From contig OZ024747.1 of assembly GCA_964016885.1 (NCBI GenBank), forward strand, positions 45,570,001 through 45,634,000: a stretch of 64,000 nt of DNA. Direction: 5' to 3'. The notes below the pieces were generated by a model that had not been told where the DNA came from, made no database searches, and worked only from the letters and a program-made list of their open reading frames with translations. The translations under genes were made by a program, and so were the position numbers. Position 1 is the stretch's first letter. Every line of letters begins with the position of its first letter. This DNA comes from Eledone cirrhosa. Its lineage: Eukaryota. Shown here piece after piece: positions 2,341 through 60,349 of the stretch.

Positions 2341-3383
2341 AAGACAATCTATAGACAACTTTGCATATCTATACTATTTGTTTAAGGCTTCTTTTGAGAA
2401 TATTTATTTTCTCGCATGTAATCTATTAAAAATGTAGCTTTAGGGAGATTTTCAATTTGTGTTTGTTTTAATGAAAGAACATGGTTTAGATCAAAATATA
2501 TATTTGCCAAATGCTTTTATTCAGAGTTGTATAAAAAGAGATATAATAATACAATGCTTACAGAATGAAAGCGCAAACAAATATAATATAGAGGAAAGGA
2601 AGAGGGGAAACAGAAAAAAAGAGAAAGGAAAAGAAAGAGAAAAGAAAATAAAGAAAAGAAGATAAAAGAAAAGAAAAAAAACCCCAAAACCGCATACAAC
2701 AAAATGCAAACGAAAGGGGTGGACAACCGAGCCACTAACAGAGTAAAAGATAACAGTATTGCGAGGAGCACTGGGAAACCTCTCTAATGATTTTTTAGGC
2801 AAGCCAGCACGCTCACAGCATTACCTCAGGTGATGGCGAGGCTGATGCACTAGAACAGCCAAACGCCCTCACGAGATTCACCCTTTACCTCTGTTAAGCG
2901 AGCTGCCAGTGAAGATAGGAATCTCGCAGTCAGTAACTTGACTATATTTGAAAAATATTTACAAGAATTTATAAGCAGATCATGATGAAAAAATGTTCTT
3001 TGAAAGATATTTAGCTTTAAATCAATGGGTTTTTTTTTTGGGGGGGGGGGTTAGATGAGTGGGGTGGTTGGTGGTCAGGAAGGTAAGTAATATTTTCATG
3101 AATAGCATTAGAGACCTTGTTGGGTTGAAAAGAGAGGATTTCTTTTCATCATTTTCAAGGGATATTTTTCTATCAAAACTTATTAGAGATATATTGAGAA
3201 TGGCAACAGTTCACAACATTTCAATTTAGTAATAGAGTAAATTTTGTCAAATAAATCTTTTAAATTCTCAAGGGAAATAATAAAATATGAAATTTTAAAT
3301 ACTCTCACTCATAATTTAAATATCACTTAAATTAGTCTTTTTTTTTTGTTTTCATCCTCTCAATTTTAGAAATATATAATAAA

Positions 3384-3418
3384 ACTACTACTCCTACTAC
3401 TACTACTACTACTACTAC

Positions 3419-3455
<37 letters not shown>
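3384..3455. repeat. (ACT)n(AAT)n tract; (ATT)n tail/target of Tx1 copy 1
   Basis: Direct reading; abuts the element 3' end. Confidence 0.95.
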
Positions 3456-3457
<2 letters not shown>

Positions 3458-3705
3458 TTTCTTTATTAACCACAAGGGTTTACATAAAGTAGACATTAAG
3501 GACAGTACAGGACAATACAGGACGGTACAAATGGGCATTTCTGCGTGTAAAAAACAAAAACAGAGGATGTAACAAAAAATAACAATGAAAAATTCCCCAA
3601 TAGGGGGGAGACTTCGGAGGGACATTTGTGGAGAAAGCCCAGTAAAAAGCCACAATGACCCTGACCACCAAGGCAAGTGCCCTCTCCCAGTTTTCCACCT
3701 TTAAT

Positions 3706-6700
3706 TTACAGATATATGCTCAGAGTAGGCCCATTCACTCGGGCCATTCTTGCTTCTCTCACCCATCTTTCAACAAAATGCTGGGAAGAGAGCACTTCCC
3801 TCTCTACTCTGATTTTCCTTTTCAAATGAAATTTGAAAAAGTCAATCAGAGCATCACCGAAGAGGTAAGTGCTCGTCTTCAGCCCTTTCAAACGTGTCCA
3901 CCATACTATCTCTTTCGCCATGGCCACCAGGCAGATAAAAACTGCCTGCCCTTCCCGGCTAAAGGAGGAGGGCGGGGCAATCCTCACGATGGACTCAGAT
4001 GATAGCCGGATCCGTCCTAAACGCGACAGCAGGTGTTCGACATAAACCCACAAGTCAGCAATTTTCGGACACTGGACGAGTGCGTGCAGGACGGTTTCGT
4101 CGCCCTGCGCGCATCTCGGACATGCCCGGCTAACGGCACCTCCATGCCTGTAGAGTTTATCCCGAACTGGCAAGGCTCCTCGGTAGCACTGCCAGGCCAG
4201 AGATTTCTGGAAGTTGTCCATAGGCCCTGGCCCGAAAGTCCTTCCGAAGAGATTGGCTAGTTGATTTTCGTCGACGCCTAGAGTTTCCCCAAGTACGTCG
4301 TCGCTCTTCCCCTCCACTAATCCTCTATAGAACGCCGAGGTGGAGTTTCCACCGATCACATTGCCCGATTGGTCGAGGGCTGTGAGCGCCTGAAGACATT
4401 CCAGTCTCCAGGCGCTCCCTCTCGGTCTTCGCTTGACCCAGGACTGCAGCTCCGTCAAGGAAACGAGCTGGGGAAACACGCGTCTAGCAAACGGCGACCA
4501 CACCTGATCACCGTCGAGGAAGAGGTGGAGATGTCGTAGCCTGAGCGCGTGCCTGCGCATCATCAGCCACGGCATGCCCAGCCCTCCACGTAGCGGGTGT
4601 TGACAACAGATGGACCGCCTGACCATCGGAGCGCGTCCCTTCCACAAAAAGCGAAAGAGCAAACGCTCCAGCACAGTCAGGCGAGGCTTAGGACAAGGTA
4701 CGACGGTCAGGCGGTAGCAGATGACGGACGCGATGTACGCGTTAGCCACCTCCGCTCGACCTTTCAGGGATAGCTTCCTCTCGGCCCATTTCTGGGTGAG
4801 AGAAGCCACCCTGCTCGTCACCTCCTCCCAGTTTTTGTCCGTCTGGAGGTCCGGACCGAACCAGACCCCTAGCAATTTAACCGGTCCGTCCGTCCAGCGT
4901 CCGACGACGCTGTTGGACGGCATGGACCTGCCTCTCCAGGTGCCGAGCTGCAGGCCCACTGACTTTTCCTGGTTGATCATTGCTCCTGTCACCGCTTCGT
5001 ATTCTCTTAGTGTAGTGCCGATCGCCTCCATGTGTTTGGCGTTCGACACCACTACGGTGACATCGTCCGCATATGCTGATACGGATCTTCCGCATCCTAG
5101 TTCGCGCGGGACCCCCCTCAACGTCTCCAGTTTGTGCAGTAATGGCTCGAGAGTCAATACGTACAAGAGGGACGAGAGGGGACATCCTTGGCGGACCGAG
5201 CGCATGATGTTGAACGGTTCCGACAGGTGACCGTTCACTCTCACCACAGAGCAGATGTCGCTGTGCATGGCAGCGATCCAGCCTCTGAAGACGGGCCCAA
5301 AGCCAGCCGCCCTCAGGACTGCCGCTAGGTAACGATGGTCGACCCTATCGAAAGCTTTCGACTGATCTAAATTGATCAAGGACCCACCCGTGCCAGGTTC
5401 CCTAGCTACCCTCTCTACGATGTATCGCATGAGGTGGAGGTTGTCGTGGATGGATCTGTCGGGAATGGCGTATGTCTGCGCCTCTCCCACCAGACCACCA
5501 ACGACAAGCGCCAACCTCTTTGCTAGCACCTTGGCCAAAATCTTAAACTCTGTGTTTAGCAGAGTTATGGGCCGGAAATTTTCTATGTTATCCCCCTTGT
5601 TCGGATCCTTTCTCAGCAGTGCCACCGCTCCTCGGCTCACAGAACTGGGAATTCTCCCGTTCTGTTGCCAGTTGCAGTAGACGTCTGCCAAGAGGCCTCC
5701 GAACAAGTCTGGCATCTGTACGTAAAGTTCATAGGGCAGACCATCCAAACCAGGCGATTTACCCCTTGTGCAGCCAGTCATTGCCTCCCTTACTTCAGCG
5801 GCTGTTATCGGCTTTTCGCAACACTTCGCCTCAGTGGGCGAGAGCCGCGGCAGTCCGTCGAGGTAGACACTAAAGTCCATCCCTCTACCCGGCCCACCGC
5901 TGCCCCCGAACAGCTGAGCGAAGTGTCGCTGAAAAGCTTCACACATTTGCCCGGGATCGAGTAGCATGCGCCCGTCGTGGTCCACCAAAGACCGGATCGT
6001 GGCTTTGTTGCCACGACGCGCCTCCGCCACTCGGGCCCATTGAACGGCTTTCGTCCCCTCGTGTCTGAGAGCACGCACCCTTGCTCTGACAACGCAGCCT
6101 TCGTGCTTTGCATTGAAGAATTGGTCAAGGGCCAATTTCGCCGCAAGCACGTCGGTCGCAATGCCTTTGCTAAGCGCCTCGTCTAATTTTCTAACTAGTT
6201 CTCCCTCTGCTCTATTTTTCTCTATTGCTAAAGCCTTACTAAACCTAATCGATTCTATTCTAATCGCTCTTTTCAGAGCAAACCACCACTTGTTGTTGAC
6301 GATGGCCCCCGTCAACGCCCGCTTAACTAGTTCGCTAATCCGGTCTCTGTAGGCCTTGCGCGCTGGTAAGGACGCGTTTAGCTTCCAGTAGCCGGGTCCT
6401 CGTCTATGAAGCCTATCTAAGTCAAGCACACAGATCACGAATTTGTGGTCCGTGTAGCTGACTATCTTGAATTGTGGACAGCCTATGCTAGACCTATCTA
6501 TTTCCCTACAAAATACTCTATCTAGATATGATCTGGATGACCCTATGCGGTTTGTCCAAGTCCACATTGGCACATTCGGGAAATCCAATCGGTACCTGTC
6601 AGACAGTTCAAAACGCCTGAGCAGGTTGGTGAGGCTCTTGCACCCTCCACCCCTATCCGCTAATCCCACACAGTCCCAGCGTGCATCTAAGATGCCGTTC

Positions 6701-7125
6701 CAGTCGCCCACTAACACTAAAGAGCGGGACGTTCCAAGAAAGGTCTCCAGACGCCGGAAGAAATCAGGCCGCCCTGCTCCTGTCGGGGCATAGACGGCCA
6801 CTAGCCTGAAAGCTTGCCCGTCTCCGCTGGTCACGTCCAGCACCACCAGCTTACCCTCTGGGTCCAGGAAGATGGCCCGTATGGCGAGATCCAAACCTCT
6901 CCGAAAAAGTACAGCAACTCCTCCACCGGATCCAGGACGGCTGGGAGATGCGTACACATCGTAGCCGCCGAAGATCGGTGCGAAGGCCCGTGCTTCGGAG
7001 ATTCTGGTCTCGCTGATGGCCACTACATCTATGTTTAGTGACCTGAGGTCGTTGAGCAGGTGACCCTGCTTCCATGACGACCCCAAGCCACGCGCATTTA
7101 TGCTGCCTATTCTGAGTGAGGTCAT
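3706..7125 (-). CDS. Tx1 ORF2: AP-like endonuclease, reverse transcriptase and C-terminal Zn motif (1139 aa, open)
   Basis: APE motifs SINARGL, ISET, VYAP, GDWN, SYLDRVF, TDH; RT motifs PGLDG, FRPITLLN, DQSKAFD, RQGCPLS, YADD; CPRC-x8-H-x4-C. Confidence 0.97.
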   Translation of the reverse strand: MTSLRIGSINARGLGSSWKQGHLLNDLRSLNIDVVAISETRISEARAFAPIFGGYDVYASPSRPGSGGGVAVLFRRGLDLAIRAIFLDPEGKLVVLDVTSGDGQAFRLVAVYAPTGAGRPDFFRRLETFLGTSRSLVLVGDWNGILDARWDCVGLADRGGGCKSLTNLLRRFELSDRYRLDFPNVPMWTWTNRIGSSRSYLDRVFCREIDRSSIGCPQFKIVSYTDHKFVICVLDLDRLHRRGPGYWKLNASLPARKAYRDRISELVKRALTGAIVNNKWWFALKRAIRIESIRFSKALAIEKNRAEGELVRKLDEALSKGIATDVLAAKLALDQFFNAKHEGCVVRARVRALRHEGTKAVQWARVAEARRGNKATIRSLVDHDGRMLLDPGQMCEAFQRHFAQLFGGSGGPGRGMDFSVYLDGLPRLSPTEAKCCEKPITAAEVREAMTGCTRGKSPGLDGLPYELYVQMPDLFGGLLADVYCNWQQNGRIPSSVSRGAVALLRKDPNKGDNIENFRPITLLNTEFKILAKVLAKRLALVVGGLVGEAQTYAIPDRSIHDNLHLMRYIVERVAREPGTGGSLINLDQSKAFDRVDHRYLAAVLRAAGFGPVFRGWIAAMHSDICSVVRVNGHLSEPFNIMRSVRQGCPLSSLLYVLTLEPLLHKLETLRGVPRELGCGRSVSAYADDVTVVVSNAKHMEAIGTTLREYEAVTGAMINQEKSVGLQLGTWRGRSMPSNSVVGRWTDGPVKLLGVWFGPDLQTDKNWEEVTSRVASLTQKWAERKLSLKGRAEVANAYIASVICYRLTVVPCPKPRLTVLERLLFRFLWKGRAPMVRRSICCQHPLRGGLGMPWLMMRRHALRLRHLHLFLDGDQVWSPFARRVFPQLVSLTELQSWVKRRPRGSAWRLECLQALTALDQSGNVIGGNSTSAFYRGLVEGKSDDVLGETLGVDENQLANLFGRTFGPGPMDNFQKSLAWQCYRGALPVRDKLYRHGGAVSRACPRCAQGDETVLHALVQCPKIADLWVYVEHLLSRLGRIRLSSESIVRIAPPSSFSREGQAVFICLVAMAKEIVWWTRLKGLKTSTYLFGDALIDFFKFHLKRKIRVEREVLSSQHFVERWVREARMARVNGPTLSIYL

Positions 7126-7160
7126 GTTTAAAATAGAGTGGAAAAGATGGGAAAGACCAC

Positions 7161-9257
7161 TTACCGTACTTTTGGTAGAGGAGGGATGGTTTTTACATCC
7201 CTTTTCACTTGATCGTCTGGTGAAGGGACCGTTGAATCGTCCCTTCGGCTGGTCGTCGGCTCTTCTAAGAGAATGTCTGAGTATACTCTTCGATTGATGG
7301 TTCCTCCTAGGTCCCTGAAATCACCAACTGCGTCTGGGAATTTCGTTTTAATATTTGTGTATTGTTTCTGTGCTATTTTTAGCAGTCTTATGTTAGTTGG
7401 CGTTTTGATTGGTGCTGGTATTATGTAGTCCTGTTGTGAAATGTCTGTGTGTTCAATTATGTAAGTCATTAGTTTCTTGTTGTGTGTATTTATTGCCGTG
7501 CATTTGTTTTTCTGGGGGTGGGGTGTGGTTCTGCTATTTTCTTGTCGTTGTTGCTGGGTGTGTGTGTTTTGTTGTTGTGTTTGCGATGTTGGTGCTTGTG
7601 GTGGTGGTGTTGAAGGTGTTGTTGGCGGTGGGGTTGTCGCCGGTGGTGATGGTGGCGCTAGTGTGGGTGGTGATGGTGTTGGTGTTGTTGCTGCTGTGGG
7701 TCTCTTTGCAGTAGACTTTACCCTTTTCTCATTTCTTTCCTCCCTTTTCAAAGGCGACGATGCGCTGTTTCTGCGTTTGTGCCTTCTTACGACCTTTTGC
7801 CATCTCTCTCCCACCTCACACTCCATGTCTGATTCTGTGAGGTCGGGGAGGGGTACCAGCTCCACTCTTTCACTTGTTGTTGTTGGTGATGTTTGCACTG
7901 GAGTCTCTGTTGCAGCTGCATTTGGTATTGCTGTTGTTGTTGTTAGTATTTCCACTGCTGCTGCTGTTTTTGATTTCCGTGGAGTGGGTATGGGTGCCAC
8001 GGGCCTATCGTTCCTGGTTGCCGCTTGTCCTGTTGCTGGTAGCCGTGGAGCCGGATTCGGAAGGAGGGGGGTTTTCTCCTTTCTCAGGGTCTTCTCGTTG
8101 CAGAAGGCCCTGAGGTGAGTCTTCGATCCACAGCGAAAGCATTTCGGGCGTTTGCCCTCAACACTTATGGGCAGTTGAGTGCCGTTATCGAAGTCTATCA
8201 CATCCGGGATAGCTTCGATGCACTCCTGGTTGGTTTGGATTAGCATCTCAATGGAGGAGCCGACCCAATCTTCTCTTACTTTTTTCTGTACTTGCAGTAC
8301 AGTTGTTTTGTCCTCGATTCCGACGAGGACAGACGCGGCCAGCCAAGAAGGGGTCATTCCGGGGGGGACGTGGGTCAGTTTGACCCTCACAATTTTTTGC
8401 CCACAGTAGGAGGGCACCAACACCATTTCCTCGCTCCTTAGGGTCACTACTGATTGGGCCTTTGCCTCCTGGGGTGTGGCAAAAAGTACGTCTACGGTGG
8501 CATATTTTTTGCCTCGGGTGATGTGCGTTTTCCGCTGCCACACAGACCCCAAGGCTTTTTGTATTTGGGCCTCTGTGGCTCTTTCCACCCTACGGGATTT
8601 TGTACTTACTGTACGGTACGTGACCGTACAGTGCTCTTGGGTTTCGAAAAATTTTTCCGCTGCCTTGCAGATTGCTCGGTGTCCGTTCTTTGTCACCATC
8701 TTCTTCGCTTCCTCTAATTCCTCATTTGTTATGAGGATTGTTTCCAAGTTTTTCGCAATACCTGCAAATGAGATTGGTTTTTCTCTGCTGTTGTTGTTGT
8801 CGTCAGAGCTGCTGGTACTTTTGTTGTTGCTGCAGGTACTACGACTACTGCCTCCGCCGCTGTTGCTGTGGTTGTTGTTGGTGTTGCTGCTGCTAATGCT
8901 GTTGTTGTTTATGCTGCTGGTGATGCTGTTGCGGCTGCTACTGTTGTTTTCATTGTCACTGTTGCTGTTGTTATTACGGCTGCTACTGCTATTATTCCTG
9001 ACGTCAGACGAATGAACTGGGTTTTCGTATTTCCCGCACACCTGTTTCGTCGCTGTCGTCGTCGTCGTGGAGAAACCTTGCACGCTTTGCACGAGACTTT
9101 TCTTTTCTTTCGTCACTTGCGAAAGAGAAGGGAGGGAGAGAGACACATTTAAAGAAGGGAGGGAGAGAGACAATCTTCTCTCTGCTGTAGTGATGATTGA
9201 GGAAGAAGAAGACGGAATGAGTGGGAGTGACGTATGAAATTCCTTTTTCGTAGCCAT
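7161..9257 (-). CDS. Tx1 ORF1 nucleic-acid-binding protein (698 aa, open)
   Basis: CCHC knuckle CFRCGSKTHLRAFC, N/S-rich and P/T-rich low-complexity regions, RRM-like segment; 35 nt upstream of ORF2; CAAC-ATG-G start context. Confidence 0.92.
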   Translation of the reverse strand: MATKKEFHTSLPLIPSSSSSIITTAERRLSLSLPSLNVSLSLPSLSQVTKEKKSLVQSVQGFSTTTTTATKQVCGKYENPVHSSDVRNNSSSSRNNNSNSDNENNSSSRNSITSSINNNSISSSNTNNNHSNSGGGSSRSTCSNNKSTSSSDDNNNSREKPISFAGIAKNLETILITNEELEEAKKMVTKNGHRAICKAAEKFFETQEHCTVTYRTVSTKSRRVERATEAQIQKALGSVWQRKTHITRGKKYATVDVLFATPQEAKAQSVVTLRSEEMVLVPSYCGQKIVRVKLTHVPPGMTPSWLAASVLVGIEDKTTVLQVQKKVREDWVGSSIEMLIQTNQECIEAIPDVIDFDNGTQLPISVEGKRPKCFRCGSKTHLRAFCNEKTLRKEKTPLLPNPAPRLPATGQAATRNDRPVAPIPTPRKSKTAAAVEILTTTTAIPNAAATETPVQTSPTTTSERVELVPLPDLTESDMECEVGERWQKVVRRHKRRNSASSPLKREERNEKRVKSTAKRPTAATTPTPSPPTLAPPSPPATTPPPTTPSTPPPQAPTSQTQQQNTHTQQQRQENSRTTPHPQKNKCTAINTHNKKLMTYIIEHTDISQQDYIIPAPIKTPTNIRLLKIAQKQYTNIKTKFPDAVGDFRDLGGTINRRVYSDILLEEPTTSRRDDSTVPSPDDQVKRDVKTIPPLPKVR

Positions 9258-9472
9258 GTTGTTTTTTTGTTTAAAATGAATATTGGGTACAAAACCCCAA
9301 TAACTGGTTATTTAACCCCGAAGGGCCAAATAACGGACAGAAAGACCCCTCTCACGAGGAGGAGGGTGTCTTTATCAACAATTTGGTTCAAGTTTTAAAC
9401 AATTTACAATTGTTTTAACGGTTAAAAATTACTATACCTTACAGAGCCGAGCCTCCGTCAACCATGGCATTC
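9258..9472 (-). promoter_or_regulatory. Structured 5' UTR of Tx1 copy 1 (three hairpins)
   Basis: AAAGAC..GTCTTT stem; GTTATTTGGCCC-TTCG-GGGTTAAATAAC (cUUCGg loop); TATTGGG..CCCAATA just before the ATG. Confidence 0.6.
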
Positions 9473-9526
9473 AATAATAATAATAATAATAATAATAATA
9501 ATTGTTTCTACTTTTGGCACAAGGCC
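9473..9526 (-). mobile_element. Isolated SINE-A 3' tail plus (ATT)n linking Tx1 copy 2 to copy 1
   Basis: Minus strand GGCCTTGTGCCAAAAGTAGAAACA(ATT)n. Confidence 0.85.
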
Positions 9527-9527
9527 A

Positions 9528-11176
9528 TAACCACAAGGGTTGACACAAAGTATAACATTAAGGACAATACAAATGGGCATTTCTGCATGTAAAAAAAACA
9601 AAAACAGAGTGTGATAAAAGGAAACAATGAAACGTTCCCAAAAGGAGGGTGACCTCCGAGGGTTGCTCGTGTAGAAAGCTCACAAGATAAGCCATGGTTA
9701 CCCTGACCGCTAGGAAAATGCTCTCTTCCAGTTTTCCTCCTACAATGCTACAGGCACACGATCAGGGTAGACCCATTCACACCAGCCATTCTTGCCTCTC
9801 TCACCCACCTTTCAACAAACTGGCTGGAGGTCAGCACTTCCCTCTCCACCCTGATTTTCCTCTTCAGGTGAAACCTGAAAAAGTTAATAAGGGCGTCACC
9901 GAAGAGGAAAGTACTGATCTTCAACCCTTTCAGACGTGTCCACCATACAATCTCTTTTACCATGGCCACAAGGCAGATAAAAACTGTCTGCCCTTCTCGG
10001 CTAAAAGAAGGCAGCGGGGCTATCTTCACGATGGATTCAGCTGATAGCCGGATCCGTTCTACACGTGACAGCAGGTGTTCGGCATAAACCCACAAATCAG
10101 TAATGCTTGGACACTGGACGAGTGCGTGCAGGACAGTTTCATCGCCCTGTGCGCATCTAGGACAGGTTCGGCTGATGGCACTTCCATGCTTGTAGAGTCT
10201 ATCCCGAACTGGCAAGGGTCCTCGGTAGCACTGCCAGGCCAGGGATTACTGGAAGTTATCCATGGGCCCCGGCCCGAAAGTTCTCTCGAAGAGATTGGCG
10301 AGTTGGTTTTCGTCGATGCCTACATTCTCCCCAAGGATGTCGTTGCTCTTTCCTTCCACTAATCCTCTATAGAAAGCCAAGGCGGAGTTTCCAGCGATTG
10401 TATTGCTCAACTGGTCGAGGGCTGTAAGCGCCTGAAGACATTCTAGTCTCCAAGCGCTTCCTCTCAGTCTTCGCTTGACCCAGGACTGCAGCTCTGCCAA
10501 GGAGACAAGCTGGGGAAACATGTGTCTAGCAAAGGGCGACCACACCTGATCATCGTCGAGGAAGCGGTGGAGATGCCGTAGCCTCAGCGCATGTCTGCAC
10601 ATCTTCAGCCACGGCATGTCCAGCTCTCCGCATAGCGGGTGTTGACAGCAGATGGACTGCCTGACCATCGGAGCCCGTCCCTTCCACAAAAAAGAGAAAG
10701 AGCAAATGCTCCAGTGCAGTCAGGTGAGGCTTAGGACAAGGCACGTCGGTCAGGCGGTAGTAGATGACGGACACGATGTACGCATTCGCCACCCCCGCTC
10801 GACCTTTAAGGGATAGCTTCCTCTCGGCCCATTTCTGGGTGAGAGAAAACACCTTGCTCGTGAAAACACCTCGCTCGTGACCTCCTCCCAGTTTTTGTCT
10901 GTCTGGAGGTCCGGACCAAACCAGACCCCTAGCAATTTAACCGGTCTGTCCGTCGAGCGCCCGACTTCACTGTTAGGCAGCATGGACCTGCCTCTCCAAG
11001 TGCCGAGTTGCAGGCCTACTGATTTTTCCTGGTTGATCATTGCTCCTGGCAGTACCTCATATTCTCTTAGTGTGGTGCCGATTGCCTCGATGTGTTTGGT
11101 GTTCTACACCACTACGGTGATGTCGTCTGCATAAGCTGACACTGTTCTTCCGCATCCTAGTTCACGTGGGATCCCT
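9528..11176 (-). mobile_element. Tx1 copy 2, 5'-truncated and frameshifted (YADD region to 3' UTR)
   Basis: ORF fragments 9748-10215, 10246-10689, 10550-10852 and 10750-11040 match the copy 1 ORF2 C-terminus. Confidence 0.95.
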
Positions 11177-55000: not shown

Positions 55001-55044
<44 letters not shown>

Positions 55045-55330
55045 TTTCTTTATTGGCCACAAGTGCTGACATCAAGAAAAACATCACAGACTGAACAGGA
55101 CGGTACGATGTGGGTTTTGTGCGTGTAAATATTTTTATTATTTATATAAGAAAAGAAAAAAGACATAAAACATATATATATATAAACAATAAAATGAAAA
55201 TTGAAACAAGGAAAAATTCCCCAATAGGGGGAAACCTCCGAGGGTTACTCGTGGCGAAAACCACACAAAAGACCACAGCCACCCTGACTACCAGGGCAAG
55301 CGCCCTCTCTCAATTTTTCCATCTCTCAAA

Positions 55331-58300
55331 CTACAGACGTATATTCACTCGGACCATTCTCGCTACATTCACCCACCTTTCAACAAACTTGCTAGAAAGC
55401 AGCACTTGCCTCTCCACCCGGATTTTCCTCTTCAAGTGAAACTTGAAAAAGTTAATTAGGGATTCGCCGAAGAGGAAAGTGTTTGTCTTTAATCCTTTTA
55501 ACCTTGTCCACCACACAATCTCTTTCGCCATGGCCACCAGGCAGATGAAAACCGCCTGCCCTTCCTACTCAAAGCAAGACGGTGAGACCATCTGCACAAT
55601 GGACTCAGTCGACAACCGGATCAGTCCTACACGTGACAGCAACTGTTCGACATAGCTCCACAAGTCAGCAATGCTCGGGCACTGAACGAGTGCGTGCACA
55701 ACGGTTTCGTCGCTATGCGCGCATCTCGGACAGGCTCTGCTGACGGCACTTCTGTGCCTGTAGAGCTTATCTCGAACCGGCAGCGCTCCCCGGTAGCACT
55801 GCCAGGCCAGGGATTTTTGGAAGTTATCCATAGGCCCCGGGCTGAAAGTTCTCCGGAAGACAGCAAGCAGCTGATCTTCTTCGACGCCCAGGATCTCTCC
55901 GAGAACGTCGTCGGTCTTCCCCTCCACTCGTCCTCTATAGAACGCCGAGGTGGATGTTCCACCGATACTGGTGCCCAACTGGGAGAGGGCAGTGAGCGCC
56001 TGGAGACATTCCAGTTTCCAAGCGCTATCCCTCGGTCTTTTTCTGACCCAGGACTGCAGCTCCGTCAAGGAGACGAGTTGTGGGAAAATGTGCTTGGCGA
56101 ACGGCGACCACACCCGTTCACCATCAAGGAAGCACCAGAGATGTCGCAGCCTCAGCGCATGTTTGCGCATCATCAGCCATGGCATGCCAAGTCTTCCACG
56201 CAACGGTTGTTGACAGCAGATGGATCGTCTGACCATGGGAGCGCGTCCCTTCCACAAAAAGCGGAAGAGGAGGCGCTCCATTTTGGTGAGAGTTGGGCTG
56301 GAGCAAGGGACGACGGCGAGGCGGTAGCAGATGATCGATGCGATGTACGCATTCGCCACGTCCGCCCGGCCTTTCAGGGACAGCTTCCTCTCAGCCCATT
56401 TCTGGGTGAGGGAGGCCACCCTGCTCGTCACCTCGTTCCAGTTTTTCTCCATCTGGAGGTCCTGTCCGAACCAGACCCCGAGCAATTTAACCGGTCCGTC
56501 GGTCCAACGCCCCACGACGCTGTCGGACGGCATGGAATTGCCTCTCCAGGTGCCTAGCTGCAAGCCCACCGACTTTTCCTGGTTTATCTTTGCTCCTGTC
56601 ACCGCTTCGTATTCCTTGAGAGCGGTGCCGAGCATCTGGACGTGTCTGGTGCTCGACACCACCACGGTGACGTCGTCAGCGTAAGCCGACTCGGATTTCC
56701 CGCATCCTAGTTCGCGCGGGACGCCCCTCATCGCCCCCAGTTTGTGCAGTAACGGCTCGAGAGCCAATACGTACAAGAGGGACGAGAGGGGACAACCCTG
56801 GCGAACTGAGCGCATGATGCTGAACGGCTGCGACAGGTGACCGTTCACCCTCACAACTGAGCAGATGTCGCTGTACATTGCTGCGATCCAACGCCTGAAA
56901 ACGGGCCCGAAACCAGCTGCCTCGAGGACCGCCGCCAGGTACCGATGGTCGACCCTATCGAATGCTTTGGATTGATCCAAGTTGATCAGAGCCCCACCCT
57001 TGCCAGGTTCCTTAACCACCCTCTCTATGATGTATCGCATGAGGTGGAGGTTGTCGTGTATGGATCTGTCCGGGATGGCGCATGTCTTCGCCTCTCCCAC
57101 CAGACCATTGACGACAAGCGCCAACCTCGTTGCTAACACCTTGGCCAAAATCTTGAACTCTGCGTTTAGCAGGGTTATGGGCCTGAAATTATCAATAACA
57201 TCCCCCTTGTTTGGGTCTTTTCTCAGCAGCGCCACTACTCCCCGGCTCACAAAACTAGGAATGCTCCCGTTCTGCTGCCAGATGCAGTAGACGTCTGCCA
57301 AGAGGTCACCGAACAAGTCTGGCATAAATGCATAAAGCTCGTAAGGCAGACCATCTAAACCTGGCGATTTACCTCTTGTGCAGTTAGCCATCGCTTCCCG
57401 TATTTCACCGGCTGTTATTGGCTTTTCGCAACACTGTGCTGCGGTCGTCGAGAGCCGAGACAGTCCGTCGAGGTATGCACTGAAGTCCATGCTCCGATCC
57501 GGGCCGCCGCCGCTCCCGAACAGTTCAGCAAAGTGCTGCTGAAAAGGTTCACACATCCGCTCGGGTTCGAGCATCACGCACCCGTTTTGGTCAGACAAAG
57601 ACCGAATTGTGGCTTTATTGCCACGTCGCGCCTCTGCCACCCGGGCCCATTGGACGGCTTTTGTCCCCTCGTGTTTCAGAGCACGCGCTCTAGCTATGAC
57701 AACGCAGCCTTCGTGTTTTGCGTTGAAGAATTGGTCGAGTGCCAATCTCGCCGCAAGCACGTCGGTTGCGATGACTGTCCTAAACGCCTCTTCTAGCTTT
57801 CTGACTAGCTCTGCCTCTACTCTATTTTCCTCTATCACTACTCCTTTGCTAAACCTAATCGACTCTACTTTAATTGCCCTTTTCAGGGCGAACCACCACC
57901 TGTTGTTGACGTCAACGCCCACTTAACTAATACGTTAATCCGGCCCCTGTAGGCCTTGCGCGCCGGGAAGGACGCGTTCAGCTTCCAGTAACCAGGCCCT
58001 TGTCTATGAAGTCTGTCTATGTCGATCTCACAGATCACACATTTGTGGTCTGTGTAGTCGAATATTTTAAATGGTGGACAACTTATACTACCCTTATCTA
58101 GTTCCCTGCAGATTACCCTATCTAGATACGATCTGGATGACCCGATGCGGTTTGTCCATGTCCACATTGGCACATTCGGGTGATCCAGTCGATACCTGTC
58201 AGACAGTTCAAAACGTCTGAGCAGGTTGGTGAGGCTCTTGCACCCTCCTCCTCTATTCACTGGCCCCACACGATCCCAGCGTACATCCAAGATACCGTTC

Positions 58301-58725
58301 CAGTCGCCCACTAACACGAAAGAGCGGGACGTTCAAAGAAAGGTCTCTAGACGTCTGAAGAAATCTGGCCGTCCTGCCCCTGTTGGGGGCGTAGACGGCT
58401 ACTAGCCTGAAAGCATTGTCTTCGCTGCCGGTGACGTCCAGCACCACCGACTTACCTTCTGGGTCCAGGAAGATGGCCCGTATCGCGAGAACCAAGCCTC
58501 TCCGAAAAAGGACGGCAACCCCTCCCCCGATCCTGGACGGCTGGGAGATGCGTATACATCGTAGCCGCCGAAGATCGGTGCGAAGGCCCGTACCTCGGAG
58601 ATTCTGGTTTCACTGACGGCCACCACATCTATGTTTAGTGACCTGAGGTCATTGAGCAGGTGACCCTGCTTCCAAGATGACCCCAGGCCACGTGCATTTA
58701 TACTGCCTATTCTGAGTACAGCCAT
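55331..58725 (-). pseudogene. Tx1 ORF2, frameshifted
   Basis: Fragments 58402-58725, 58253-58495, 57883-58317, 55565-57922 and 55331-55537 tile copy 1 ORF2. Confidence 0.95.
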
Positions 58726-58757
58726 GTTGGATGAGAAACGGGGCAAATGAGAAAGGG

Positions 58758-59952
58758 TCACTTACCTTGTTCGTGTGGTGAAGGGACAGTAGAACCGTCC
58801 CTTTCGCTGGTCATGAGTATTTCCAAGAGGATGTCAGTGTATATCCTCTTGGTAACCGTCCCTCTGAAGTCTCCAACTGCGTTGGGGAATTTTTGTTTTA
58901 AAGGTTTGTATTGTTTTATTGAGATTTCGATGATGCTTATGTTTGTCGGGAGAGTTCTTGGTGTTGGTGGGGTGTAGTAGTTTTTTTCCGTGATGTCTGT
59001 GTGCTGCTTTATATATTTTATGAGTTCTTTTTTTGCTATATTTATGGCTGTGTACATTTTGGCCCTCACAATTTTCTGCCCGCAGTAGGAGGGCACCAAG
59101 ACTAACTCCTCACTCTTTAAGGTTTCCAAAGAGTGAGACTTTGCTTCCTGGGGGGGGGGGAGTACGTCTACTGTGGCGTACTTTCTGCCTCGGGTGATGG
59201 GGGTTTTGCGTGCCCAGACGCACCCCAAGGCCTTTTGGATTTGAGCCTCCGTGGCTTTCTCCACTCGATGTGAGATTTTGCTTACGGTGCGGTAAGTCAC
59301 CGTTCGTAGCTGCTGGTCCTTGAAAAAAATCGGGTGGAGGTTTCAGGAAAACTATTTGCGCTTCTTGTCACCATGGCCCTTGCGACTGCCATCTCCTCCT
59401 CTGTGACTAACACTGTCTCGATATTTCGGGCGACACCTGCAAAAGAAGTGGTCCCTTTTTCAGCAGCACCACTATTGCTGCTGCTACTGGTCTTACTGGT
59501 GGTGCTGAGGTCGTTATTACAGGTATCGGTGTCATTGTTGTTCTTTTCGCTGGTACAGTTGTTGGTGTTGTTTTCGTTGATACTGTTGCTGCTGTTGCTG
59601 TTATTGTGGCTGTTGTTATTAATGTTGTTTTTGTTGATACTGTTCCTACTATTATTGTTGTTGTGGCTGTTGTAATTGTCATTGTTATTGTCGTTCTCGA
59701 CCTTACCGCTGTTATTTTTGTTATTGTCGTTCTCGACTTTACCGCTGTTATTTTTGGTGTTGTTGTTGGTGATGTTGTTGGTGTTATTGTTGGTGTTGTT
59801 TGTGTTAGAAATATTTGTTAACTTTAAATCTGTAACAATCTTTTTTTCCTTTGTAATACCTCCGCTGGAACGCTATCTTGTTGACATGCTGATAAAGTCT
59901 CCCTTTCTCTGTGTTGTCTGACAGCGCTCTCTCTCTTTTTTATGTTATCCAT
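58758..59952 (-). pseudogene. Tx1 ORF1, frameshifted and internally deleted
   Basis: TYRTVS..KATEAQIQKALG..LVPSYCGQKIVR fused to the C-terminal domain TAIN..FPNAVGDFR. Confidence 0.88.
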
Positions 59953-60349
59953 GTTGAAATTTTTCAAAAAATACTTTTACACAAATACGAATACGACACC
60001 CCGTAAAGGGGTGCCGTATTATTTACTAGTGAACCCCTGTATTAGGTGGGTCACTTCTTCTAAACTTTTATCAAATTTAAAACTTGAATAAAAGGTTTAG
60101 AACGGTTGAAAAAGAGGTAAAACGTTGAAAAAGACTGGAGGCGATAAGAAGCGTGGCTTCGCCAACCAATAATAATAATAATAATAATAATGAGAAGAAG
60201 AAGAAGAAGAATACACTTACGGCTAGAAAAATTATGCTGGAAAAATTACATGCATAAAGATGAAATTATAGAAATAATTAAGTTAGTAAAGGCTAATAAC
60301 TGAAACATGAAATGCAGAATGTAAAGAAAGAGAATATATATATATATAC

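Follow-up and report, generated by a model that had tools for sequence, protein, structure and literature searches.

A conserved splice-donor motif at the ORF1 stop of a LINE in Eledone cirrhosa and a predicted RNA clamp that may cover it

Long interspersed nuclear elements (LINEs) are usually thought to avoid splicing, because an RNA has to remain intact in order to be copied. A stretch of 64,000 nucleotides (nt) of the Eledone cirrhosa genome (assembly GCA_964016885.1, contig OZ024747.1, positions 45,570,001 to 45,634,000; the window) carries a LINE with two open reading frames (ORFs), copy 1, in which a strong 5' splice-site motif overlaps the stop codon of ORF1. Conservation of this donor supports selection on the nucleotides themselves, and computed folds pair it with a strand that follows the ORF2 stop codon. 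We favour the reading, with a probability of about 0.45, that the donor is a binding site for the U1 small nuclear ribonucleoprotein (U1) that is shut off by this clamp, with little removal of ORF2. The reading rests on the conservation of the donor, a complementarity that is matched within lineages, an acceptor restricted to one clade and the absence of spliced DNA copies. If true, a selected donor with a co-evolving long-range mask would represent retrovirus-like RNA control in an element that lacks long terminal repeats (a non-LTR element). The features on which the argument depends are as follows, in window coordinates.

3455..9472, minus strand: copy 1, a full-length L1/Tx1-type LINE (family A) with (ATT)n on either flank
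7161..9257, minus strand: ORF1, 698 amino acids (aa), with a CX2CX4HX4C knuckle, octopod homologues and a TAA stop inside the donor
3706..7125, minus strand: ORF2, 1139 aa, with an APE endonuclease, a reverse transcriptase (RT) and a zf-RVT domain (Pfam Exo_endo_phos, RVT_1, zf-RVT)
7159..7167, minus strand: conserved 5' splice-site motif ACG/GTAAGT, with GT at 7164-7163, found in 4,021 A/B copies
7137..7165, minus strand: predicted 5' strand of the clamp, the donor plus the pyrimidine-rich ORF1-ORF2 spacer (computed duplex)
3672..3700, minus strand: predicted 3' strand of the clamp, directly after the ORF2 stop, of which 3679-3672 pairs with the donor
3541..3562, minus strand: candidate acceptor in the 3' untranslated region (UTR), a T tract plus CAG, found in the A/B/D clade only (7,199 copies)
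3462..3467, minus strand: AATAAA, assigned by sequence, ahead of the (ATT)n tail

The donor motif and its predicted partner strand

The genome searched comprises 3.0 Gb, and the families sampled from it are A (copy 1), B, C1/C2 (copy 3), D (copy 2) and the more distant E0-E3 and F; their nucleotide sequences are 68-96% identical to that of A. The ORF2 of the D representative carries a large deletion, and F and E0 are each known from one old copy. Every locus inspected after distant-protein searches of the genome belongs to this same lineage, and the comparisons are made within it, without an out-group from other LINE clades.

A preliminary description of the window proposed that ORF2 lies in a spliceosomal intron running from this donor to an acceptor in the 3' UTR, whose removal would give an ORF1-only mRNA. 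The donor itself is confirmed: CG/GTAAGT overlaps the ORF1 stop of copy 1, with GT at 7164-7163 and TAA within the motif, and copy 3 has AAG/GTAAGTGA with GT at 58765-58764. The copy 1 motif, which had been called perfect, has C instead of A at position -2 and is strong rather than perfect. The motif is kept in two stop phases and nine lineages, beyond chance, in agreement with the view that it is conserved despite the change of frame. Of 30 unselected loci, 29 have GT at the donor site. Across nine lineages, 2 changes fall in columns -2 to +6, compared with 1.35 per silent four-fold column, and seven random silent columns are equally conserved in 0.5% of draws (P = 0.005). The ORF1 stop always lies within the motif, in the phase xR-stop in A, B, D and F and GK-stop in C and E. 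Because the motif stands in two reading phases, codon use does not explain its conservation, which extends to positions outside any codon. These alignments support a nucleotide-level constraint on the donor. Family E3 is young, with at least 314 exact copies; its donor is perfect, yet AG is absent from the position homologous to 3541. The donor of family D is a weaker one. Two outside ORF1 homologues end in DQGK-stop and EGKS-stop, the second from Argonauta hians, and are compatible with the motif at the protein level. Some copies of B, C and E1 have a second donor-like motif about 300 nt into ORF2 (window ~6860), at PEGK codons.

In all ten representatives, the spacer that runs from the donor to the ORF2 ATG is computed to form a duplex of -35 to -53 kcal/mol with the ~45 nt directly past the ORF2 stop. 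This cognate duplex is stronger than all other windows of the same element in eight of the ten. In A, B, C1, C2, D and F, none of 150 shuffles reaches it; for the four E representatives the corresponding numbers are 2, 3, 5 and 30. Over 37 copies, the spacer prefers the 3' strand of its own lineage (permutation 1/120 for five lineages and 4/362,880 for nine groups). In 9/10 representatives the computed fold pairs the donor with the 3' strand. The sense duplex beats the antisense one in 10/10, by less than 2 kcal/mol in four, and weaker local hairpins of -6 to -15 kcal/mol also cover the donor. Helix columns +7 and +8 show three changes each between lineages, unlike the donor columns. The anti-donor strand of copy 1 (3679-3672) lies inside the proposed intron, ahead of the 3541 AG by about 130 nt and of AATAAA by about 210 nt. 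The clamp is predicted to form and to cover the donor before the acceptor is transcribed.

In the favoured reading, U1 would sit on the donor while the 3.4-kb ORF2 is transcribed, with just weak local hairpins competing, and donor-bound U1 would protect the RNA from premature formation of a 3' end. After the ORF2 stop, ahead of the acceptor AG and AATAAA, the anti-donor strand would emerge. The clamp would then displace U1, so that ORF2 removal would be prevented and the true poly(A) site freed; ORF2 removal would be a minor leak product. A more elaborate scheme is a co-transcriptional timer, in which the U1 site is open during ORF2 and is then shut by the co-evolving strand to choose between full-length and ORF1-only mRNA, and in which leak splicing between tandem copies built family A. 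In this complete form it is possible, though less likely than not.

Acceptors, spliced copies and competing explanations

The acceptor sites named in the preliminary description exist: that of copy 1, ...TTTTTTACACGCAG, ends at 3541 and that of copy 2, ...ACATGCAG, ends at 9583. Joining the donor to 3541 removes 3624 nt and gives a 717-aa ORF1 that ends in LNVYFM, with its stop ending at 3480, 13 nt before AATAAA. The site has its GT donor counterpart and 16 pyrimidines among the 20 nt before YAG. In a family alignment of both sites, the donor is kept in 9/9 lineages and the 3541 acceptor in 3/10 representatives (A, B and D), so that the donor half of the expected conservation is upheld and the acceptor half is not. 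A, B and D form one clade on the ORF2 tree, and retention within this subtree is at chance level (probability of two sites unchanged, 0.48). The E and F families have no AG at the homologous position. The ACACGCAC of copy 3, previously ascribed to decay, carries AC as a C-family trait; AG is absent there from every C-type 3' UTR examined. Judged by sequence, the 3541 acceptor is a derived trait of a single clade. The 3' UTR features common to all lineages in the alignment are the T tract, the last 30 nt and the following motif.

3595..3607, minus strand: C-run/TATT/G-run motif, hairpin-like by sequence, present in the 3' UTR of all lineages and lost in the proposed splice

Within ORF2, 46 AG columns are shared and none has more than 13 pyrimidines in every copy, which leaves no strong common acceptor; upstream of the donor there is likewise no strong acceptor common to all lineages. 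Back-splicing and exon capture are unsupported without a shared strong acceptor in either region.

Retrotransposed copies of a spliced RNA, for which the preliminary description had proposed a search, were not found in the genome, against 4,021 unspliced A/B donors. Exact, gapped and degenerate searches for the A/B junction gave 0 matches, as did a direct genome search for donor-to-TAG joins in families E and C. The donor-side filters catch joins without T at +2 and +6 (~56% of arbitrary joins); ORF2-stop joins in C1 and E would escape them and were therefore searched directly. The donor-side scans returned 9, 5 and 5 matches and the acceptor-side scan 18; all are indels, truncations, one inversion or microhomology deletions, with the sole exception of locus L181. 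This E copy shows a single 53-nt loss with 3-nt microhomology, which fits either splicing or deletion. Contigs of runs X1, X2, X5 and X7 (run type unrecorded) over the whole element contain no 3540/7165 joint among the 15 joints listed, beyond which there are 1,153 more. Runs X6, X3, X4 and X2 (also of unrecorded type), over 7120-7260, contain no spliced loose end among those listed, beyond which there are 20 more. Internal deletions amount to 35 gaps in 40 loci that were partly selected for short spacing. Nine of these gaps are a 43-nt family difference and were set aside; the other 26 are all distinct, mostly with 0-5 nt of microhomology, and one of them (L193) is GT..AG-compatible. By hand count, unique internal deletions with short microhomology are frequent, affecting about 14 of 52 start/end pairs (L185-L199, L091-L108). 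Because an ORF2-less RNA needs help in trans, the missing copies argue solely against abundant germline spliced RNA.

A possible trace of donor use lies in the origin of family A.

7207..7208, minus strand: chimera joint, where the ORF1 of a parent family, cut at the parent's donor, is joined to CAG in a family-B ORF1 end

The ORF1 of family A is about 92% identical to that of a parent family whose own donor stands at the position corresponding to window 7208; the parent pattern has 34 exact matches and 102 one-mismatch matches, with some A-type variants among the latter. Past the joint, beginning after CAG, A follows B (96-97% in ORF2). The CAG has no pyrimidine tract. The joint, a single event, fits a splice between tandem copies or a deletion with 2-nt microhomology. 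Differing 5' UTRs and ORF1 N-termini stand on related ORF2s in families A, B, C and E1-E3, as in repeated swapping of 5' modules.

Several points weigh against the favoured reading. The ORF2 of family A contains no A(A/T)TAAA hexamer for U1 to suppress; hexamers do occur within 350 nt upstream of the donor in 11 of 13 copies, and their number is what A-richness is estimated to give. The clamp is a computed fold, and that of E1 is weak, being reached by 30 of 150 shuffles and leaving the donor unpaired to the 3' strand. Joining the donor to some downstream AG produces a terminated ORF1 in nine of ten lineage representatives, and the family-A joint suggests that the donor was used at least once. 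Furthermore, a rare spliced RNA, devoid of ORF2 and of the motifs in the 3' UTR, might fail to give rise to DNA copies.

The closest alternative, which is possible, is that ORF2 is a regulated, partly retained intron and that an ORF1-only mRNA is made through the 3541 AG in A/B or through ORF2's own TAG in C, E and F, at a rate tuned by the clamp. It shares the U1 site and the clamp with the favoured reading and differs from it in the amount of spliced RNA. Donor conservation agrees with it, and a donor-to-TAG join stops within 1-4 codons in C1, C2, E0-E3 and F. A and B have lost this TAG, with TAA in its place, but they possess the distal AG, and a stop follows it after 20 codons. This early-stop pattern keeps the ORF1-only idea alive; however, it was noticed post hoc and involves about 3-4 independent lineages, the TAG sites have just 12-15 pyrimidines per 20 nt, and D gives non-stop products at all three AGs scored. 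No spliced retrocopy is found with either acceptor, though a TAG-spliced RNA retains the entire 3' UTR. The family-A joint, at a parent donor plus CAG, agrees with such splicing, but a spliced chimera would have skipped the parent's own TAG. Arabidopsis EVD offers a precedent in which the spliced RNA is the minor form (PMC5580714). Of the ORF1-only splicing switch as first proposed, the constrained donor and the terminated joins thus survive, while the clade-restricted acceptor, the non-stop products of D, the missing processed copies and the predicted pairing of the donor with the first part of the 3' UTR speak against it. A bicistronic LINE such as human L1 makes excess ORF1 product without splicing, and hence the argument by analogy with copia, which splices to make excess Gag, is weaker here.

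A structural or translational role for the clamp, which would join the ORF2 start and stop for re-initiation or for cis-binding of ORF2p, is improbable; the donor likeness would then be a by-product of the stop codon in the helix. The helix does start a few bases from the ORF2 ATG and stop and contains the ORF1 stop, but the donor columns are fixed while the neighbouring columns +7 and +8 change, and the donor stays constant while its partner strand varies. That both motifs arose by chance or were inherited without selection appears very unlikely given the donor statistics (P = 0.005) and the lineage-matched complementarity, even though silent sites are unsaturated (A is 57-58% identical to E/F there), the second donor-like motif recurs about 300 nt downstream in several copies and the acceptor is conserved no better than chance. 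Least credible is an intron of 28-54 nt in the spacer that fuses ORF1 to ORF2. An in-frame join is available in A/B at an AG 53/52 nt downstream, and the E copy L181 lacks the homologous 53 nt; however, the same AG is out of frame in the phase-1 families, and the 3-nt microhomology of L181 resembles that of other deletions. In E1, E3 and F the nearest AG is 30-44 nt away, too short for an animal intron. Moreover, an RT made as a fusion would be expected to copy the RNA that encodes it, but A/B have 0 fused copies.

Related control systems

The favoured reading has its nearest likeness in retroviruses, where U1 has a splicing-independent role at the donor and structure blocks access to it. In foamy virus, donor-bound U1 suppresses polyadenylation and RNA structure blocks U1, and the HIV-1 major splice donor likewise controls polyadenylation (PMC3694450); the donor of murine leukaemia virus (MLV) is attenuated by structure (PMC2794156). 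These are LTR retroviruses with local structures, whereas the predicted mask of copy 1 lies 3.5 kb away, past ORF2.

In EVD, U1 has a dual role, with suppression of polyadenylation at the donor as in foamy virus, and a subgenomic gag mRNA is made, and Drosophila copia has an intron of about 3 kb (PMC5580714). A conserved donor that ends the gene for the structural protein is common to these elements and to copy 1. However, copia has a single gag-pol ORF, a conserved donor and acceptor and junction reads, whereas here the ORFs are separate, the acceptor is unconserved and the system is known from DNA alone.

Among LINEs, spliced DNA copies are on record as human SpIREs (spliced integrated retrotransposed elements), which make up 131 of 6,609 full-length L1s, or about 2% (PMC5860796). 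The SpIRE donor lies in the 5' UTR and ORF2 is kept, in contrast to the present element, with 0 spliced copies against 4,021 donors. Introns in L1, Tad, Penelope and TART antisense RNA have been noted, with their importance given as unknown (PMC1636488). The L1/Tx1-clade elements Kibi and Koshi, which target microsatellites, resemble copy 1 in having two ORFs, an APE-RT-zinc ORF2 and microsatellite flanks; they differ from it in target, which is (ATT)n here (PMC4494074). L1-Tx1 elements are described as recently active in Octopus vulgaris (PMC13282606). In a literature search that left Repbase entries and subscription Tx1 papers outside its range, neither a conserved donor at the ORF1 end nor a clamp between spacer and 3' UTR was found described for LINEs. 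HAL1 elements are ORF1-only derivatives of L1. A HAL1-like copy is the expected DNA product of the proposed splice, and none with this joint was found in the genome.

The element, its relatives and neighbouring repeats

Copy 1 is an intact two-ORF LINE, and all 40 of the scored genome matches are 100% identical to it over 301 nt. Its ORF2 combines APE and RT domains with a C-terminal zinc motif, and its separate ORF1 has a nucleic-acid-binding motif, as in L1/Tx1 elements. The best solved-structure match of ORF2 is human L1 ORF2p (E = 1e-52), with R2 at 7e-22. A Pfam scan of ORF1 gave no family above the cut-off, and an ORF1 word-index search gave no matches; all six named proteins among ten looked-up homologues are from Octopus or Argonauta. 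ATT repeats flank copy 1 and end most of the listed loci, which resembles the target preference of Tx1, though stated without a control count. Copy 1 is accordingly regarded as an ordinary L1/Tx1-type LINE, the Tx1 label being inferred. The window holds two relatives of it.

9528..11175, minus strand: copy 2, 5'-truncated, D-type, with its acceptor AG ending at 9583
55028..60167, minus strand: copy 3, decayed, C-type, with donor GT at 58765-58764 and AC in place of AG at 55120-55119

The lineage is large and young. Genome pattern counts give 5,793 ORF2 starts and 7,199 copies of the acceptor 27-mer, with tandem arrays in (ATT)n. Set against the 7,199 A/B/D 3' ends, the 5,793 ORF2 starts indicate unusually little 5' truncation for a LINE, with the proviso that the family coverage of the two patterns is not exactly equal. 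Full-length copies form head-to-tail arrays joined by (ATT)n, such as ten E3 copies about 5.84 kb apart (G000:C1:423365564-423418122) and A-family tandem copies spaced about 6.06 kb; L009-L011 are likewise head-to-tail arrays. At another locus (L204, G000:C1:45777125-45777941) the 3' UTR acceptor motif occurs three times at 395-nt spacing, as a tandemly repeated LINE 3' end. A metagenome scan gave nine loci at 27-29% identity, none with a usable junction, and runs X5 and X7, coded as two other organisms, have long contigs over window 3300-9500 that match copy 1 at about 99% identity with a depth of 6-10, which may reflect related species, a mixed sample or horizontal transfer.

The 3' end of copy 2 (9538-9500, minus strand) runs into the tail of a short interspersed nuclear element (SINE)-like repeat at a common CCTTGTG motif. 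This SINE-like tail, which resembles the LINE tail, has 78,055 exact genome copies. Such numbers suggest a LINE-SINE pair in which tail-bearing RNAs may be copied in trans by a putative partner. Directly past the ATT tail of copy 3 lies the 5' fragment of an old E-type element (54999-54170, minus strand). In an Octopus sinensis gene model named 'tectonic-3-like' (P0005), about 60 aa match the endonuclease of this ORF2 at 64%, probably as an annotation chimera or an exonised LINE.

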